The notes: a model not told the origin generated them from the letters alone. Counted from the stretch's first letter, positions 17,240-24,107 are shown. The stretch is DNA of 28,347 bases from a virus (IMGVR_UViG_3300041407_000052:1-28347), one strand, 5' to 3'. Translations and numbers: made by a program.

Positions 17240-17255
17240 CGCGGGGTTTTCTTTT
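17230..17255 (+). terminator. Rho-independent terminator closing the + strand block
   Basis: Hairpin CCTCGC-TAAC-GCGGGG followed by TTTTCTTTT. Confidence 0.85.
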
Positions 17256-17330
17256 ACCCTGAATTTCATTTTCCCCTATTTTGACTTCCCTGATTTACAC
17301 TTTTCCCTGTAAATCCAGTTCCTGAAATCC
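17256..17330. repeat. Five degenerate pyrimidine-rich units (consensus about TYCCTGAWWT), 15-17 bp period
   Basis: Units start at about 17256, 17272, 17287, 17304 and 17319. Confidence 0.55.
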
Positions 17331-17454
17331 CGTCTTGTTAGTTATTCAACTGTCGGTAAATCCCTATTCGTTTAACGGAAGTAGCTCTAATGGGTTTAAC
17401 GCCCCGGACTTCAGGCAGCTACCGCCCGTCGGTATAATTCTAAAATCCCTAGAG

Positions 17455-17471
17455 TTGGCATAAACCTTGCT
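17455..17471 (+). promoter_or_regulatory. sigma54-like -24/-12 motif TTGGCATAAACCTTGCT
   Basis: GG-N10-GC spacing with TGGCA and TTGC boxes. Confidence 0.5.
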
Positions 17472-17494
17472 AAGTGATTCGGTTGATCACCATA

Positions 17495-17513
17495 TGTGAA
17501 TGATTATCATTCA
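17495..17513. promoter_or_regulatory. Fur-box-like palindrome
   Basis: TGAATGAT-T-ATCATTCA perfect 8-bp arms; 13/19 to GATAATGATAATCATTATC. Confidence 0.5.
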
Positions 17514-17727
17514 ATGTCATTTAACATAATACCTATTACACGCACAGCTGCATCCCCTCCCTTGGTATGCACCGGGAAGGTATTGTCTATCGATGGGTTG
17601 GGTATGAGTGGTTGTCTCTATCTGGCTGCATTGCACAGCCTTACCACAATGTTTCACTATACGCCCATGTGGGCAGAATGTACACCTTTTATTCATTTAT
17701 TTGTGCAGAATGCACGTATTGTTGAAT

Positions 17728-17746
17728 GATAATGATTATTATTTAC
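17728..17746. promoter_or_regulatory. Fur-box-like site
   Basis: GATAATGATTATTATTTAC, 15/19 to the Fur consensus. Confidence 0.55.
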
Positions 17747-18005
17747 CTTGATAAATCAAGGGTATTTTATACTCTATCCCATATAATGGGATGATAGTGA
17801 GTGTGGGATGCTTAGATCATTGTCCCAATGTTCAGCATACCCAAGAATAGTAATATTCAGTGAATAGTCAATATTATGTCGTTATTACGACATGTACTGT
17901 CAATGTTATGGCTTGTAAGCCATGATCTATAAGGCTTTGAGAGAAGCGGTATATGATGTGCTATGCACATGGTAGGGGTGCTGCACTGCTATGCAGTGAG
18001 TGGTA

Positions 18006-18021
18006 CTGTAGGAGGTTACAG
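18006..18021. promoter_or_regulatory. LexA (SOS)-box-like CTGT-N8-ACAG
   Basis: TACTGTAGGAGGTTACAG; the spacer is less AT-rich than ideal. Confidence 0.3.
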
Positions 18022-18355
18022 AGGGTATACTACCGTATACTAAGGAAGAGAACAGGGGTTACTACCCTGTTTCTATATCTGATATGTACGCCTGTTATGT
18101 ATACATAACAATAGGTAATTCTATAACGTTATACGTTATAATAGTATTCTTTAATACATACTCTTTGTTCTTGTGGGGTTTATCCCCACTCTTTCCTGTC
18201 TCTCTAATACCTATTCACCCGTTACTACGGGTGGACATAGGGCATTATAATAAGAAAATGCTGTTTATGTCAATACAGTATGGTTAAAGTACGTTTAAAT
18301 AGGTTGATTCTGCTAACAATCTGTGATAATCGGGTACATCATGCTAACAACTGAT

Positions 18356-18374
18356 GATAATGAGAATAATTATT
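18356..18374. promoter_or_regulatory. Fur-box-like site
   Basis: GATAATGAGAATAATTATT, 16/19 to the Fur consensus. Confidence 0.62.
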
Positions 18375-18383
18375 GCTTGCATG

Positions 18384-18404
18384 AGAAAGCCCCTTTCGGG
18401 GCTT
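18384..18404 (-). terminator. Rho-independent terminator closing the - strand block
   Basis: On the - strand AAGCCCC-GAAA-GGGGCTT followed by TCTC; directly downstream of the last - strand gene. Confidence 0.78.
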
Positions 18405-18405
18405 G

Positions 18406-18421
18406 TGTTTCACGTGGAACA
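18406..18421. other. parS: parS site (chromosomal ParB-binding consensus)
   Basis: TGTTTCACGTGGAACA (TGTTCCACGTGAAACA on -), an exact match to TGTTNCACGTGAAACA; between a stop codon and a terminator. Confidence 0.85.
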
Positions 18422-18422
18422 A

Positions 18423-18632
18423 TTAGAAAGGGTTTCCCCACTCTGCAATAACATCAGCATTGGCACGTTCGAAGCATTCAGGCGTGAAACCTTTACCACC
18501 CAACTGCTTAGCCCAATAGTCAAGGCGTTTGCTACGGAATGCAGCCACTTTCATTCCTGTACTAATCGAACCATAGCCTTTCGGTGGATTGCTTTGACTT
18601 GCACAGTGTGACATCAGATTGGAAGATTTCAT
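18423..18632 (-). CDS. Hypothetical early protein
   Basis: ORF track; AGGAG RBS; has its own promoter. Confidence 0.72.
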   Translation of the reverse strand: MKSSNLMSHCASQSNPPKGYGSISTGMKVAAFRSKRLDYWAKQLGGKGFTPECFERANADVIAEWGNPF

Positions 18633-18672
18633 TTAGAGAACTCCTGTTGTGGTACTTTGGTTTAGATAAGTC

Positions 18673-18701
18673 ATTGTAAGCACTTATCCAACAAGGTGCA
18701 A
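18673..18701 (-). promoter_or_regulatory. sigma70-type promoter TTGCAC-N17-TACAAT, overlapped by inverted repeat GATAAGT-N10-ACTTATC
   Basis: -35 at 18696-18701 and -10 at 18673-18678; IR arms at 18665-18671 and 18682-18688. Confidence 0.68.
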
Positions 18702-18705
18702 TCTT

Positions 18706-18954
18706 TTATTCACTAATTATCTCGGTTGTTTGAATGGTTACAGCCTTGAATGTAACACCTTGAGCCAATTGACCATCAAAACCTATACAACGACTAGTCG
18801 CCTTTAACGCAGCCATTTTTGCATCTTCAAGGTTGTCAAACTTCATTGCATTGTTAATCGATCCCATACATGCGGTTCCCCACTCCTTATCCCATGCATA
18901 AAGGTAGTCAGAATTGGATTTACCGTAGAAGCGTTTGACTACAAAAGTGTTCAT
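18706..18954 (-). CDS. Hypothetical early protein
   Basis: ORF track; ATGA overlap with the upstream gene. Confidence 0.75.
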   Translation of the reverse strand: MNTFVVKRFYGKSNSDYLYAWDKEWGTACMGSINNAMKFDNLEDAKMAALKATSRCIGFDGQLAQGVTFKAVTIQTTEIISE

Positions 18955-19085
18955 GCTTTCACCTTGTTAGGAATGAGTTTAGTTCCGCAATGCCCACACC
19001 ATGCAAAGCCTTCTGCTACGATTGGTCTGTGCTTGCTTAGCTTACCGTGCAAAGCACCACACTTAGAGCATGGTTTGTATTTCAT
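18951..19085 (-). CDS. Small zinc-ribbon protein (44 aa, CSKC...CGHC)
   Basis: Translated by hand: MKYKPCSKCGALHGKLSKHRPIVAEGFAWCGHCGTKLIPNKVKA. Confidence 0.68.
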   Translation of the reverse strand: MKYKPCSKCGALHGKLSKHRPIVAEGFAWCGHCGTKLIPNKVKA

Positions 19086-19087
19086 GA

Positions 19088-19633
19088 TTAAACCCCAGCT
19101 TTGTTGTAAGTGGTCCAAGCTTCTACAAACTCGGGTGATTTAACAAGATCATCCATTAGTGAGTTGATATTGTCTTGATTGACTAGGATCATGTCAACAC
19201 ACCGTTGGGCGGTTGCTTCTGGTGTACCAGTTGCCAACATTTGCTGTTTAACGAATGCTTTAGCAATGTTTAAAGCATTCTGAAATGCATCAGCACGCGC
19301 TTGGAACTTCGCGTTGCTTGCTGCTTCACGGTCTGCATTGCGTTGGTTGGATTCAACCTGAGCCACTTGTTTAGCTTCGAACTGTTCCGAAGTCAGGCGA
19401 TTGAATGTGATTTCGACCTTACCCGAAGTTGCAAGATGTTTTTCAACCCGGACAACACCTGTTGCATCACAGATGTAAAACAAGGTGTAAGAGTTGCGGT
19501 ATACAGCACCACCAGTGACGAATGTATTTTCTTCTTGACATTGTGCCAGAAGAAACTTTGCCTGCGCTTCGGATTTGAAAAAGCCATTGTTAGACTTGAC
19601 AAGCGAAGCGAAAGAAACGGCAATGTTCGACAT
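19088..19633 (-). CDS. Hypothetical early protein with C-terminal helical region
   Basis: ORF track; GGAG RBS; directly downstream of a promoter. Confidence 0.85.
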   Translation of the reverse strand: MSNIAVSFASLVKSNNGFFKSEAQAKFLLAQCQEENTFVTGGAVYRNSYTLFYICDATGVVRVEKHLATSGKVEITFNRLTSEQFEAKQVAQVESNQRNADREAASNAKFQARADAFQNALNIAKAFVKQQMLATGTPEATAQRCVDMILVNQDNINSLMDDLVKSPEFVEAWTTYNKAGV

Positions 19634-19681
19634 GGTGAATCTCCAGAAACTTAGGAGGCTTTTGCCTCCCTTCTGTTAATC

Positions 19682-19709
19682 ATTTTACAGCTTTTAGAGA
19701 AGGGTGCAA
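19682..19709 (-). promoter_or_regulatory. sigma70-type promoter TTGCAC-N16-TAAAAT
   Basis: Member of the repeated promoter family; AT-rich UP-like element upstream. Confidence 0.78.
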
Positions 19710-19723
19710 CAATTATTTTCAAT

Positions 19724-19856
19724 GCTCTATAAGCTCATATAACGCGTTTTGAGCAACGATAATTTGAGGCTTGATGTTGCTATGTCTTTGGGTTTAAAAC
19801 GTCGTACCAATATGTATGCCAACATTGGAAGACAGTGTGGGAAAATTACGTGCCAA
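19724..19856. repeat. Non-coding repeat, copy 1
   Basis: Shares GCGTTTTGAGC, ATGTCTTT and TTAAAACGTCGTACCAA (17 bp identical) plus two TGCCAA motifs with 21031-21166. Confidence 0.85.
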
Positions 19857-19909
19857 TGTTAAATAGCAGGCTCCTCTGGTGATTGCCTCTGACCCTCACC
19901 AGTAACTGT

Positions 19910-19939
19910 ATTGTACAACAATTTTTAGAACCATGTCTA
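19910..19939 (-). promoter_or_regulatory. Possible sigma70 promoter TAGACA-N18-TACAAT reading into repeat copy 1
   Basis: Contains the family spacer motif TTCTAAA; the spacer is 2 bp longer than in the other copies. Confidence 0.5.
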
Positions 19940-19953
19940 TAATTATTTTAGGC

Positions 19954-19980
19954 AAAGAAAAACCCCGACAAAGCGGGGTT
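19954..19980 (-). terminator. Rho-independent terminator
   Basis: On - AACCCCG-CTTTGT-CGGGGTT followed by TTTCTTT. Confidence 0.88.
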
Positions 19981-19996
19981 ATATGTTCAAACGGGT

Positions 19997-20203
19997 TTAT
20001 CCACCATATTTCTGGTTAAGTAGCTCACCGATATGCAATCGATATTCATCGGGCATTGATTCATAGTCTTGAATGGTGAAACGTGAAGACATGGCAAGCG
20101 CAAGACATTCGGCTTTCTCTGCTCGCTCTTCCATCTTCTTAAGTGCTGCCTTCAACTGGTTAACATAAACCCGTGTTAGTTGGACATTGCTAAGCGCTTT
20201 CAT
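19997..20203 (-). CDS. Hypothetical early protein (MKALSNVQ...)
   Basis: Track 19997..20230; ATG 20203 has an AAGGA RBS (the longer start runs through parS). Confidence 0.72.
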   Translation of the reverse strand: MKALSNVQLTRVYVNQLKAALKKMEERAEKAECLALAMSSRFTIQDYESMPDEYRLHIGELLNQKYGG

Positions 20204-20213
20204 GTTAGTCCTT

Positions 20214-20229
20214 TGTTTCACGTGAAACA
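20214..20229. other. parS: parS site (perfect palindrome)
   Basis: TGTTTCACGTGAAACA, intergenic, between a stop codon and the next RBS. Confidence 0.88.
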
Positions 20230-20232
20230 ACT

Positions 20233-20430
20233 TTAAAAGATTATTTCTTGACGAATGATAATGATGTCAGCTACTTCAATCTGTTCTCTTGACCACAACT
20301 CACCATACCACAACTTAGATGTTGCCTCATCATGTGAATCAGTGTGCAACAAATCTAACATGTTGCATTCAAACTGTTCACGTTCGCCTGTACTCTTGTT
20401 ATAGGCTGTGAAAGTTATTTTGGTAATCAT
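20233..20430 (-). CDS. Hypothetical early protein
   Basis: ORF track. Confidence 0.7.
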   Translation of the reverse strand: MITKITFTAYNKSTGEREQFECNMLDLLHTDSHDEATSKLWYGELWSREQIEVADIIIIRQEIIF

Positions 20431-20452
20431 GTACGTACCCCCAGTACCTCAA

Positions 20453-20665
20453 TTATTGACCTTTGCACATTTTACCAGCATACATGATGTAACTGGCTTT
20501 ACCTTCTGCGCAAGCTTTAACAGCATTTTCATGTTGCTGAGCTTTGAATACAACAGCATTTGCAGCAACTTCTTTTGCACGGTAATGATCACCAACAACA
20601 GGGGCCACTTGCGAGATTGCCATGATCAGACCAAAGAACAGTGCAATACCGGAAAAGAAGTTCAT
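20453..20665 (-). CDS. Small membrane-anchored or exported protein
   Basis: N-terminal hydrophobic helix FFSGIALFFGLIMAI; AAGGA RBS; promoter upstream. Confidence 0.75.
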   Translation of the reverse strand: MNFFSGIALFFGLIMAISQVAPVVGDHYRAKEVAANAVVFKAQQHENAVKACAEGKASYIMYAGKMCKGQ

Positions 20666-20715
20666 GTGCGTATTCCTTTAGTAGTGGGAGGCTGTTTCGC
20701 CTCCCTATGTGTTGT

Positions 20716-20743
20716 ATTCTACAGCTTTTAGAGAAGGTTACAA
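20716..20743 (-). promoter_or_regulatory. sigma70-type promoter TTGTAA-N16-TAGAAT
   Basis: Repeated promoter family. Confidence 0.75.
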
Positions 20744-20746
20744 GCT

Positions 20747-20917
20747 TTATTTGTAGTTGTTCAAAGCCTTTTGCATGGCTTTATAACCATTGGCTTGCTC
20801 TGTGAGGTTGGAGTATGTGACAACTTTAGTAGCGTCAGCGTGCATCACGGAACCGAAAGGACCATAAACAACGAAACCGTTAGTGCCTTTGATTACTTGA
20901 ATTTGATTAGCGTTCAT
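20747..20917 (-). CDS. Hypothetical early protein (56 aa, MNANQIQVIKG...)
   Basis: Translated by hand; GGTGA RBS; has its own promoter. Confidence 0.75.
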   Translation of the reverse strand: MNANQIQVIKGTNGFVVYGPFGSVMHADATKVVTYSNLTEQANGYKAMQKALNNYK

Positions 20918-20967
20918 ACTATCACCTTGAGCTGTTTGAGTGGCTGTCTTGCCTCTCTATGTGTCCA

Positions 20968-20995
20968 ATTCTACAGTGTTTAGAAAACCATGCAA
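20968..20995 (-). promoter_or_regulatory. sigma70-type promoter TTGCAT-N16-TAGAAT
   Basis: Repeated promoter family; AT-rich upstream. Confidence 0.78.
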
Positions 20996-21030
20996 GTATT
21001 ATTTTCAATCTTTTAGAAAAGAATTCATAG

Positions 21031-21166
21031 GCTCTGTAACGCTCTATAATGCGTTTTGAGCGACGTTATAACCTACCCTTCACACTGCCATGTCTTTTGG
21101 ATTAAAACGTCGTACCAAGAAGCGTGCCAAGTCTGCTCTCTATATTGTATGCTATTATCATGCCAA
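21031..21166. repeat. Non-coding repeat, copy 2
   Basis: See copy 1; also contains the inverted repeat CGACGTTATAA...TTAAAACGTCG. Confidence 0.85.
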
Positions 21167-21224
21167 CTAGGAACGTCACCCACTCTCCCTGTTTGTCTCG
21201 TGCTAAATTCCACACCATGACAAT

Positions 21225-21252
21225 ATTCTATCAGTATGTGACTGGAATGCAA
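21225..21252 (-). promoter_or_regulatory. sigma70-type promoter TTGCAT-N16-TAGAAT reading into repeat copy 2
   Basis: -10 at 21225-21230 and -35 at 21247-21252; follows a terminator. Confidence 0.72.
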
Positions 21253-21271
21253 GGAATATTAACACATAGGT

Positions 21272-21294
21272 AAAAGCCCCAATCAAGGGGCTTT
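21272..21294 (-). terminator. Rho-independent terminator (possibly bidirectional)
   Basis: AAAGCCCC-AATCAA-GGGGCTTT, with an A-run and a T-run on the two sides. Confidence 0.85.
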
Positions 21295-21296
21295 CT

Positions 21297-21434
21297 TCAA
21301 GGTAGACGGTTTGGATTGAAGGTTAATCGATGGGCTAACAATTGTTTGTACAACTGTACTCTATCCGGTGATACCCGTGCATCAATCCAATTACGCATGA
21401 TGTACTTGCGTTTGAGCATTTGAATAGCGTTCAT
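21297..21434 (-). CDS. Hypothetical basic protein (45 aa, MNAIQMLKRKY...)
   Basis: Translated by hand; ATGA overlap; ends at the terminator. Confidence 0.68.
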   Translation of the reverse strand: MNAIQMLKRKYIMRNWIDARVSPDRVQLYKQLLAHRLTFNPNRLP

Positions 21435-21754
21435 CGTAAACCCTTTTCTATGTAGTCAGTATGCCAGTCAATAATGTCCTTCAATGCCTTCTCAGTCCTG
21501 AAACTGTAATCAGTCAGTACCTGATTCCCGTCAAGGTCAAAGGCATAAAACATACTGTTCCACACACCTTTGACAATTTCAATTCGCTTATAGAGTGCTG
21601 TACTCCTTACAAGCTCATACGCTTGAGAAGCGGCATATGTACTGGCTTCTTCTTCGGAATCAAAACAGGTAGACACAAGTAACCCTTTATCTTTACCTGT
21701 AAGCATTCGCAATGACCAGTGTGTGCGGTACTTTTCAATCTTTACTAACAACAT
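21431..21754 (-). CDS. Hypothetical early protein
   Basis: ORF track. Confidence 0.78.
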   Translation of the reverse strand: MLLVKIEKYRTHWSLRMLTGKDKGLLVSTCFDSEEEASTYAASQAYELVRSTALYKRIEIVKGVWNSMFYAFDLDGNQVLTDYSFRTEKALKDIIDWHTDYIEKGLR

Positions 21755-21755
21755 G

Positions 21756-22163
21756 TTAGTTACTCACCTTCTGAAGCGTCAAACCAACAATACCACCAGC
21801 GTTATAAATCACACGTTCAATAGTTGTCATTGGAACGTTGCAACACACAGTACCATCAAAATATTGCTCTAGCTCTTTAGGGAATTCACCAGAACAATGC
21901 AGTAGTTCGAACGATTCGTATAACGAATATTGTTGATTGGTTCGTGGCGTGCAGTAATGAAAATCGCTCGCCTGAATGCTAACCCTGTCACCGTTGGCGA
22001 GTTGCAAAGGTGGAACAACACGGACAGAACGAAGCACCCCACTTTTAGTTTGCAGGCTTTCCTGCATCCATGTAGTGAAGTGCTTTTGACTTCCATCCGT
22101 GTATTGAGAAACTACAGCTGGATAGGATTCGTCTTTAGCAATGTACACTTGTTGACCGTTCAT
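21756..22163 (-). CDS. Conserved hypothetical phage protein (SIQAS.FHYC.PR motif)
   Basis: ORF track; AAGGA RBS; promoter upstream. Confidence 0.8.
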   Translation of the reverse strand: MNGQQVYIAKDESYPAVVSQYTDGSQKHFTTWMQESLQTKSGVLRSVRVVPPLQLANGDRVSIQASDFHYCTPRTNQQYSLYESFELLHCSGEFPKELEQYFDGTVCCNVPMTTIERVIYNAGGIVGLTLQKVSN

Positions 22164-22190
22164 ATTCGTATTCCTTGGTTAGTGACACCT

Positions 22191-22218
22191 ATTTTACAGG
22201 CTTTAGAAAAGGTTGCAA
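22191..22218 (-). promoter_or_regulatory. sigma70-type promoter TTGCAA-N16-TAAAAT
   Basis: Repeated promoter family. Confidence 0.78.
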
Positions 22219-22259
22219 GCTTTATTTTCAGACGTTTTGAAAGAAAATGTAGACGAAGG

Positions 22260-22283
22260 AAAGCCCCGACAAAGCGAGGCTTT
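22260..22283 (-). terminator. Rho-independent terminator
   Basis: On - AAAGCCTCG-CTTTGT-CGGGGCTTT followed by CCTTC; same loop as 19961 and 26958. Confidence 0.82.
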
Positions 22284-22284
22284 G

Positions 22285-22300
22285 TGTTTCACGTGGAACA
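22285..22300. other. parS: parS site
   Basis: TGTTTCACGTGGAACA, identical to 18406-18421; again between a stop codon and a terminator. Confidence 0.85.
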
Positions 22301-22510
22301 TCACACGGTTATGGTGATTCGTGTTCCTTTGACTTCAAAGTCTAGTAAGAAAAGTTGTAGAAGTTCCTCACGGCTGAAAACTTTTGACGTATAGATGTCA
22401 TGTCGGTTAATGCCAAGATCGGCAACCAACTGTAAAGCCGAAGGACAAGGTTCACGACCTAAGACAATATAGACAGACCATTCAAACTGTGAAACGTCAG
22501 GGTTTGACAT
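22301..22510 (-). CDS. Hypothetical early protein
   Basis: ORF track; GAGG RBS. Confidence 0.72.
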   Translation of the reverse strand: MSNPDVSQFEWSVYIVLGREPCPSALQLVADLGINRHDIYTSKVFSREELLQLFLLDFEVKGTRITITV

Positions 22511-23919: not shown

Positions 23920-24107
23920 CCTTTATTTTGCATTCTTTTCATCTGGTGTCGTCTGTCTATTGCCGAAAAGGTATTAGCATTTAACCGCCGTTTGTCAACC
24001 CTTTCAGTAGTCCAATACCCATCAAGGTACATGAGAATACCAACCGCAACAGCTGAACCAATGATGATAATGATTATCAGTTGTGCAAACTGTTCCCAAG
24101 GCATCAT
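23916..24107 (-). CDS. Small membrane protein
   Basis: ORF track; TM helix LIIIIIIGSAVAVGILMYL. Confidence 0.7.
   Translation of the reverse strand: MMPWEQFAQLIIIIIIGSAVAVGILMYLDGYWTTERVDKRRLNANTFSAIDRRHQMKRMQNKG

Follow-up and report, generated by a model that had tools for sequence, protein, structure and literature searches.

Host-type parS sites and Fur-type boxes cluster in and beside a conserved gene-free gap in a phiPMW-like Pseudomonas phage

Results

A gene-free gap with host-type motifs

We examined positions 17455-22300 of a 28,347-nucleotide window, the whole stretch of viral DNA analysed, which corresponds to bases 1-28347 of the IMG/VR virus record IMGVR_UViG_3300041407_000052 (104,392 bases in total). 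This stretch carries three copies of parS, the loading site of the partition protein ParB, together with boxes resembling the operator of the iron regulator Fur and a sigma-54-type promoter element. A preliminary description had viewed it, with further sigma-54-like motifs and a LexA-like site, as a docking array for host proteins. The concentration of parS sites, Fur-type boxes and one sigma-54 element proved real, the remaining motifs being at chance level. Scored against shuffled background, the parS and Fur-type patterns lay above it, the sigma-54 pattern was marginal and the LexA-like pattern matched chance.

Plus-strand genes, among them NAMPT, DNA ligase, a phosphatase, a primase fragment and an esterase, extend up to ~17.24 kb; from 18.42 kb on, the genes are small and on the minus strand. 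A 1.17-kb gap without genes separates the two blocks. Judged from its sequence, the source is a phiPMW-like virulent (lytic-type) Pseudomonas phage whose first 28 kb form the window, and we infer Pseudomonas as its host, the species being taken from relatives alone. The closest isolates are phiPMW (P. putida), vB_PpS_SYP (P. plecoglossicida; hereafter SYP) and Ep020, with NAMPT identities of 55-59%. Gene order in phiPMW is syntenic with the window, including the convergent gap. Megablast of 15-24 kb against phage records returned no match, and blastn with the gap sequence matched phiPto-bp6g only. SYP is lytic, with clear plaques, a latent period of 20 min and a burst size of 178 (PMC10580904). 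No integrase was found in the 104-kb genome, nor any match to ParB_N (PF02195), a search to which control genomes responded (ParA was not searched).

Three perfect parS sites occupy a recurrent slot

The preliminary description listed three parS sites. All three are perfect 16-bp TGTTNCACGTGNAACA palindromes, and they are the only ones in the entire 104,392-base genome, where whole-genome shuffles yield 0.02; within the window, shuffles yield 0.39 sites even at up to two mismatches. The sites and their immediate surroundings are as follows.

18406-18421, unstranded: parS-1, 1 nt past the stop codon of the minus-strand gene 18423-18632
18386-18404, unstranded: bidirectional terminator hairpin adjoining parS-1, read from the sequence
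20214-20229, unstranded: parS-2, 3 nt past the stop of the minus-strand gene 20233-20430 and 10 nt before the start of the minus-strand gene 19997-20203
22285-22300, unstranded: parS-3, directly past the stop of the minus-strand gene 22301-22510 and followed by a terminator at 22256-22281

On the transcribed strand, the slot thus comprises a stop codon, 0-3 nt, parS and then either a terminator (parS-1, parS-3) or the ribosome-binding site of the next gene (parS-2). The genes preceding the three sites are not paralogues of one another. The arms of the sites read GTTCCAC and GTTTCAC. In P. aeruginosa chromatin immunoprecipitation sequencing, no other heptamers are as enriched under ParB peaks (PMC5961200); parS-2 carries the second-best arm, GTTTCAC, twice. 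In P. aeruginosa, ParB binds the consensus TGTTCCACGTGGAACM at any location and ParA then repositions that DNA, while parS with two mismatches stays unbound (PMC5098823). Chromosomes of the P. fluorescens group hold four to five such sites, clustered. Half-sites were not clearly enriched across the phage genome (23 versus 16.2 expected), and a scan of IMG/VR for perfect parS returned at least 119 stretches, near the chance expectation for a collection of that size and therefore of little weight.

parS persists in relatives while its surroundings turn over

Counting sites within one mismatch, we obtained the following numbers for this phage and its relatives, of which those labelled G are handled under our own designations.

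This phage: 3 parS sites
G001: 3 sites
G003: 2 sites
phiPMW: 3 sites, all CACATG variants
SYP: 5 sites plus one end duplicate
Ep020: 5 sites
G002, phiPto-bp6g, Kremar, PAK_P1, HHBS18_1, B55 and G004-G008: 0 sites

In G001, G003, phiPMW, SYP and Ep020, the two to six parS cluster within 4-8 kb, either inside the homologous gap or next to it on its early side. The slot described above is used by 11 sites in five genomes, 10 of them 0-3 nt past a stop codon and one (in G001) 23 nt past it, and the genes preceding these 11 sites are almost all unrelated. The asymmetric parS variant has a single orientation relative to transcription (9/9). Five relatives of 74-97 kb, retrieved through a 181-amino-acid early protein, lack parS altogether and are almost devoid of Fur-type boxes.

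In contigs that other metagenomes yielded for related strains, unrelated DNA replaces the cassettes between parS sites, with breakpoints at parS, terminators and promoters; in one example, 18396 is joined to 20232 across 429 foreign bases. The sites are thus retained as the DNA around them turns over. The swapped stretches seen in related strains are 18396-20232, 18394-20684 and 20439-22190, and one relative has a decayed parS (TGTTTCAACTGGAACA) in the place of parS-2. As a separate observation, a 484-amino-acid DGQHR protein (DndB-like, with a ParB fold) adjoins a parS in SYP (L023, 7671-9125), and the Ep020 version is 80% identical; no counterpart was found in this genome, in G001-G003 or in the examined part of phiPMW.

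Fur-type boxes in the gap and at the terminase promoter

We called a Fur-type box at 14 or more matches out of 19 to GATAATGATAATCATTATC (quoted in PMC6922518). Allowing up to three mismatches, the genome contains 3 such 19-mers against 0.00 in shuffles, and the 1.2-kb gap 2 against 0.00; with up to four mismatches, the genome contains 6 against 0.47. The three Fur-box-like sites of the preliminary description scored above every shuffle and are kept in relatives.

17496-17514, unstranded: box A, 14/19, with 8-bp arms
17722-17746, unstranded: box B, two overlapping 19-mers at 17722-17740 and 17728-17746 (16/19)
18356-18374, unstranded: box C, 16/19

Box A, which spans about +13 to +31 from the predicted start of the sigma-54-type promoter described below, has aligned counterparts in G001, G003 and SYP and immediately precedes an invariant block at 17520-17530. 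It is missing from phiPMW and G002, whose sigma-54 element lies nearer the 11-mer that forms this block. At the place equivalent to box B, G001 and G003 have a GATAATGATA-type version. SYP has a box resembling C that abuts the -35 of the promoter of candidate non-coding RNA-2 (see below); positions 18355 and 18357, in the box C region, differ in two close relatives. The promoters overlapping boxes B and C are weak matches only. A tandem 31-nt duplication at 18302-18361 lies between box C and the RNA-2 promoter; both copies end in TGATAAT, which extends the row of Fur-type hexamers beyond a 19-mer.

Further Fur-type sites outside the gap are found at genome positions 29088 and 95704 (15/19 each). 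Beyond the window, at 95701-95729, a strong TTGACA/TAGAAT sigma-70 promoter stands immediately upstream of the large terminase gene; its 17-nt spacer consists entirely of the box, which is identical in G001 and G003. The early cassette promoters carry no Fur-type box. A 16/19 match at 24060 (24060-24084) was rejected as a coding by-product of the poly-isoleucine membrane segment LIIIIIIG; it serves as a warning case for motif scans in AT-rich DNA.

How good are these boxes by host standards? Two 7-Mb genomes of the P. fluorescens group hold only one or two sites each within three mismatches of the Fur consensus. The site common to both precedes an extracytoplasmic-function sigma/FecR (FecI/FecR-type) operon in the genome examined, and such operons are classical Fur targets. 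As the best host site scores 16/19, the phage boxes match the consensus equally well. The consensus of the box family differs from that of Fur at two symmetric positions. Non-coding boxes are present in 5/6 parS-bearing genomes, phiPMW having none; 2/10 parS-free genomes have one hit each, at chance level. Across these 16 genomes, parS and the boxes co-occur (one-sided Fisher ~0.02, ignoring relatedness). Both types of site thus exist in excess over chance, hold conserved positions and occur together across relatives.

One conserved sigma-54-type element and a chance LexA match

Five sigma-54-like motifs had been proposed. One is borne out by spacing and conservation; the other four are at chance level.

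17456-17471, plus strand: sigma-54-type -24/-12 element TGGCAT-N5-TTGCT, the only exact TGGCAY-N5-TTGCW in the region
18006-18021, unstranded: CTGT-N8-ACAG (LexA-like), a single chance match

Matches to TGGCAC-N5-TTGCW with up to two mismatches number 15 in the window against 17.9 expected and 7 in the flagged region against 3.6; 11/200 shuffles equalled this regional count, which makes it marginal. Only 17456-17471 combines correct GG/GC spacing with conservation among relatives. The element is kept exactly in phiPMW, G002, G003 and Ep020, 65-135 nt past a conserved anchor, and with a weaker -12 in G001. The spacers differ, being AAACC here and GGGAC, ACTCT, ACAAC and AGGTC in the relatives.

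Among the rejected matches, those at 19806, 19840, 21114 and 21150 fall in a duplicated element, the first three without the -12 GC; the -12 parts there are TTGG or TTCC and mostly lack the GC. The matches at 21150 and 18461 keep the GC with two mismatches each, the latter inside a gene. Sigma-54-like TTGCA strings stem partly from the sigma-70 promoter family of the early cassettes or from the duplicated plus-strand element. A second exact sigma-54-type element occurs in G002 (32880) and G003 (33064; both in rotated coordinates with the anchor at 20001), in the homologous place after a conserved G-rich block; Ep020 has Fur-type boxes there instead.

The suggested LexA site at 18006 was dismissed: one match compares with 0.67 expected per window, its centre AGGAGGTT is G-rich and its left arm reads TTGT in G001.

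Candidate structured RNAs in the gap

Six genomes share a homologous gap, whose common features are a 20-nt anchor, the sigma-54 element, an 11-mer, hairpins and a minus-strand sigma-70 promoter with further hairpins. Two candidate non-coding RNAs were delineated.

17520-17720, plus strand (strand not settled): candidate non-coding RNA-1, a conserved structured segment with the invariant 11-mer and hairpins
18051-18273, minus strand: candidate non-coding RNA-2, with a perfect TTGACA-N18-TATAAT promoter (18273-18244), hairpins and a terminator (18071-18051)

The 11-mer at 17520-17530 is invariant in the six genomes, and the hairpins (17624-17640 and others) show compensatory changes among this phage, G001, G002 and G003. 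The promoter and hairpins of RNA-2 are recognisable by eye in SYP. Neither candidate matches any Rfam family. Taken together, the shared anchor, the 11-mer, the covarying hairpins and the promoter argue that the gap encodes at least one structured non-coding RNA, and probably two.

Early cassettes and other features

Cassettes line up along the minus-strand region. Each opens with a promoter of one conserved sigma-70 family (an A-rich upstream part, a TTGCAA-like -35, 16-17 nt and a TAAAAT-like -10), and several close with a terminator. Between the parS sites, these promoters mark the borders of the gene cassettes.

22191-22218, minus strand: early sigma-70 promoter, with family members also at 18673-18701, 19682-19709, 20716-20743 and 20968-20995
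19724-19862, plus strand: duplicated element, with a second copy at 21031-21170, which holds four sigma-54-like motifs

Starting with a TATAAT-like sequence, the duplicated plus-strand unit contains a short open reading frame with nine conserved initial codons (MS[L/F]GLKRRT), and it sits between divergent early promoters; it may be a small RNA or peptide gene. Short repeats (TTCCC.., AAATCC-like) at 17250-17400, between the plus-strand terminator and the anchor, also occur in phiPMW and could be origin iterons or activator sites. The window contains no tRNA and no Rfam family, and the ten neighbouring small proteins scanned returned no Pfam family and no DNA-binding domain.

The 127-nt end repeats of IMG/VR relatives were considered as termini and rejected: their length equals the assembler word length, and they are therefore read as assembly overlaps. 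The SYP paper carries no terminus data (PMC10580904); the SYP record has a 351-nt end duplication located inside the gap.

Discussion

We propose, with moderate confidence, that the flagged stretch is a control region followed by the first early cassettes, equipped with working host-motif cis-elements that would be used much as in the Bacillus phage phi29. The three parS would serve as loading sites for host chromosomal ParB. As the phage lacks a detectable ParB of its own, each infecting genome should nucleate a host complex of ParB and cytidine triphosphate beside the gap. In this manner, the phage genome could ride the host partition machinery, being positioned and inherited when lytic growth stalls, as in a carrier state or in slow-growing cells. 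The Fur-type boxes would act as operators that place the non-coding RNAs of the gap and the terminase/late operon under the host iron regulator, and the promoter at 17456 would drive a structured non-coding RNA with the help of a host activator. Which proteins bind these sites, and every effect downstream of binding, is what we infer here. A more specific scenario strikes us as rather unlikely, namely a phi29-like strategy of waiting and riding in a Gram-negative host without spores: the Fur boxes would report iron status, one of them gating the terminase/late operon, the promoter of the sigma-54-driven RNA would report a second host signal, and host ParABS, engaged through the parS cluster, would deliver the stalled phage to both daughter cells.

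Several observations weigh against our proposal. The close relative G002 and nine more distant relatives have no parS, and phiPMW has CACATG variants only; parS function is therefore dispensable. T at position 5, the commonest phage variant, is not found in the five host sites examined, and parS-2 has it in both arms; a two-mismatch site goes unbound in P. aeruginosa. Two Pseudomonas genomes hold nothing within one mismatch of the phage's exact 15-mer palindrome. In phiPMW and G002, the equivalent terminase promoter has no box, and repression of a late promoter by holo-Fur when iron is replete has no obvious logic. No upstream activator site was identified for the sigma-54-type promoter, a possible CbrB-like site at ~17338-17363 being given no weight here, and no Sigma54_activat domain was found in the phage genome, so a host activator would be required. 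Finally, Pseudomonas forms no spores, and the pay-off for phi29 is thus not directly transferable.

The preliminary description had offered two functions for the sites, as sensors of host state or as sponges. As a sponge or decoy, the amplifying genome would titrate ParB and Fur, disturb segregation and division, de-repress iron uptake and possibly relieve the phage's own Fur-boxed late promoter. The sites are near consensus and equal to the best host Fur box, more boxes lie in the gap than there are obvious regulated genes, and the burst of the relative SYP (178; PMC10580904) multiplied by its five parS makes several hundred sites per cell plausible. Yet each genome contributes only three parS and about five boxes, confined to one 5-kb stretch rather than multiplied, parS half-sites are not enriched genome-wide, and the fixed slot, orientation and promoter overlap that we observe are needed by no sponge. 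The titration idea gains no specific support because the sites are few, slot-bound and tied to transcription units, and we judge it quite unlikely. The sensor idea fares better, with box A a short way downstream of the sigma-54 element and a box of identical type forming the spacer of the terminase promoter. Sensing of host state plus borrowing of ParB, not the soaking up of host proteins, is the role we consider most likely.

Host proteins might also be irrelevant altogether, with the Fur-like sites being operators of a phage regulator and parS merely a recombination linker. The breakpoints of cassette swaps at parS, terminators and promoters would fit this, as would the single orientation of the asymmetric parS variant, the departure of the box consensus from that of Fur at two symmetric positions, the lack of an exact counterpart in two Pseudomonas genomes and the many small early proteins without assigned function. 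What makes this explanation distinctly improbable in our eyes is that six phages whose hosts carry ParABS would hardly match the universal parS at 16/16 positions without ParB, and that any such parS should be bound by ParB in the cell (PMC5098823). Moreover, promoters and terminators are equally good linkers without parS, and the scan of ten neighbouring proteins for DNA-binding domains came back empty. A very unlikely third explanation is that of a silencer or insulator, in which ParB clamps loaded at the 3' end of a cassette spread over the next promoter and help shut off early genes. Each parS does lie no more than ~100 bp ahead of the promoter or gene start that comes next, and slight ParB excess in P. 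aeruginosa represses promoters beside parS3 and parS4; chromosomal silencing by ParB is, however, weak and limited (PMC5521831). Most early phage promoters (23.9-26.9 kb) have no parS, and parS-free relatives retain the same promoter family.

The proposed use of host-type sites by the phage has its closest precedent in phi29. This virulent Bacillus phage has five host parS and, at both its early and its late promoters, Spo0A boxes, and Spo0J helps to move the silenced genome into the spore; in phi29 and Nf, the two kinds of site together allow an alternative, non-lytic fate (PMC2731898). The likeness lies in a virulent phage with no partition genes found (with ParA not searched here), several host-consensus parS and, more tentatively, motifs that may bind a host global regulator, here Fur-type boxes that lie in the terminase promoter and in the gap but at none of the early cassette promoters. 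The phage described here differs in its Gram-negative, non-spore-forming host and in having Fur-type boxes and one sigma-54 element in place of Spo0A boxes. Its genome is larger (104 kb versus 19 kb), and its parS occupy a fixed stop-codon/terminator slot.

Compared with the chromosomal parS1-4 of Pseudomonas, the phage sites are the same 16-bp palindrome with arms bound in vivo, and they are likewise few and clustered (PMC5098823, PMC5961200). They are not near oriC and have no parAB in cis, and the phage prefers T/A at positions 5/12, whereas the host sites examined vary at the outermost positions. P1, N15 and RK2 KorB also load a ParB-family clamp onto a mobile replicon through centromere-like repeats; these systems, however, bring their own ParB, usually ParA, and private centromeres, while the phage uses the host sequence and has no ParB_N match. 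The Fur-type boxes resemble Fur-repressed Pseudomonas promoters (prrF, the FecI/FecR-type operon) in their 14-16/19 matches and in having one box between -35 and -10, and, like prrF, the other phage boxes adjoin candidate non-coding RNA genes. The difference is that these putative operators sit on a lytic phage, one of them at the terminase/late operon.

The principle of combining host parS with host-regulator boxes is already known from phi29. New are the co-occurrence of parS and Fur-type boxes, the Fur-type box in a terminase promoter and the conserved sigma-54 element before a structured RNA; our search of the literature on lytic Pseudomonas phages found no report of host parS or Fur boxes, and the phiPMW paper is silent on them too. 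If our proposal is correct, the fate of a virulent phage would be coupled to host physiology by DNA motifs alone, without a repressor, an integrase or partition genes, and the phi29 paradigm would reach hosts that form no spores. The carrier state, or pseudolysogeny, of lytic phages that infect soil and rhizosphere Pseudomonas is poorly understood and would gain a testable mechanism. A Fur operator in the terminase promoter would tie virion production to iron, with a bearing on phage ecology and on dosing in phage therapy.

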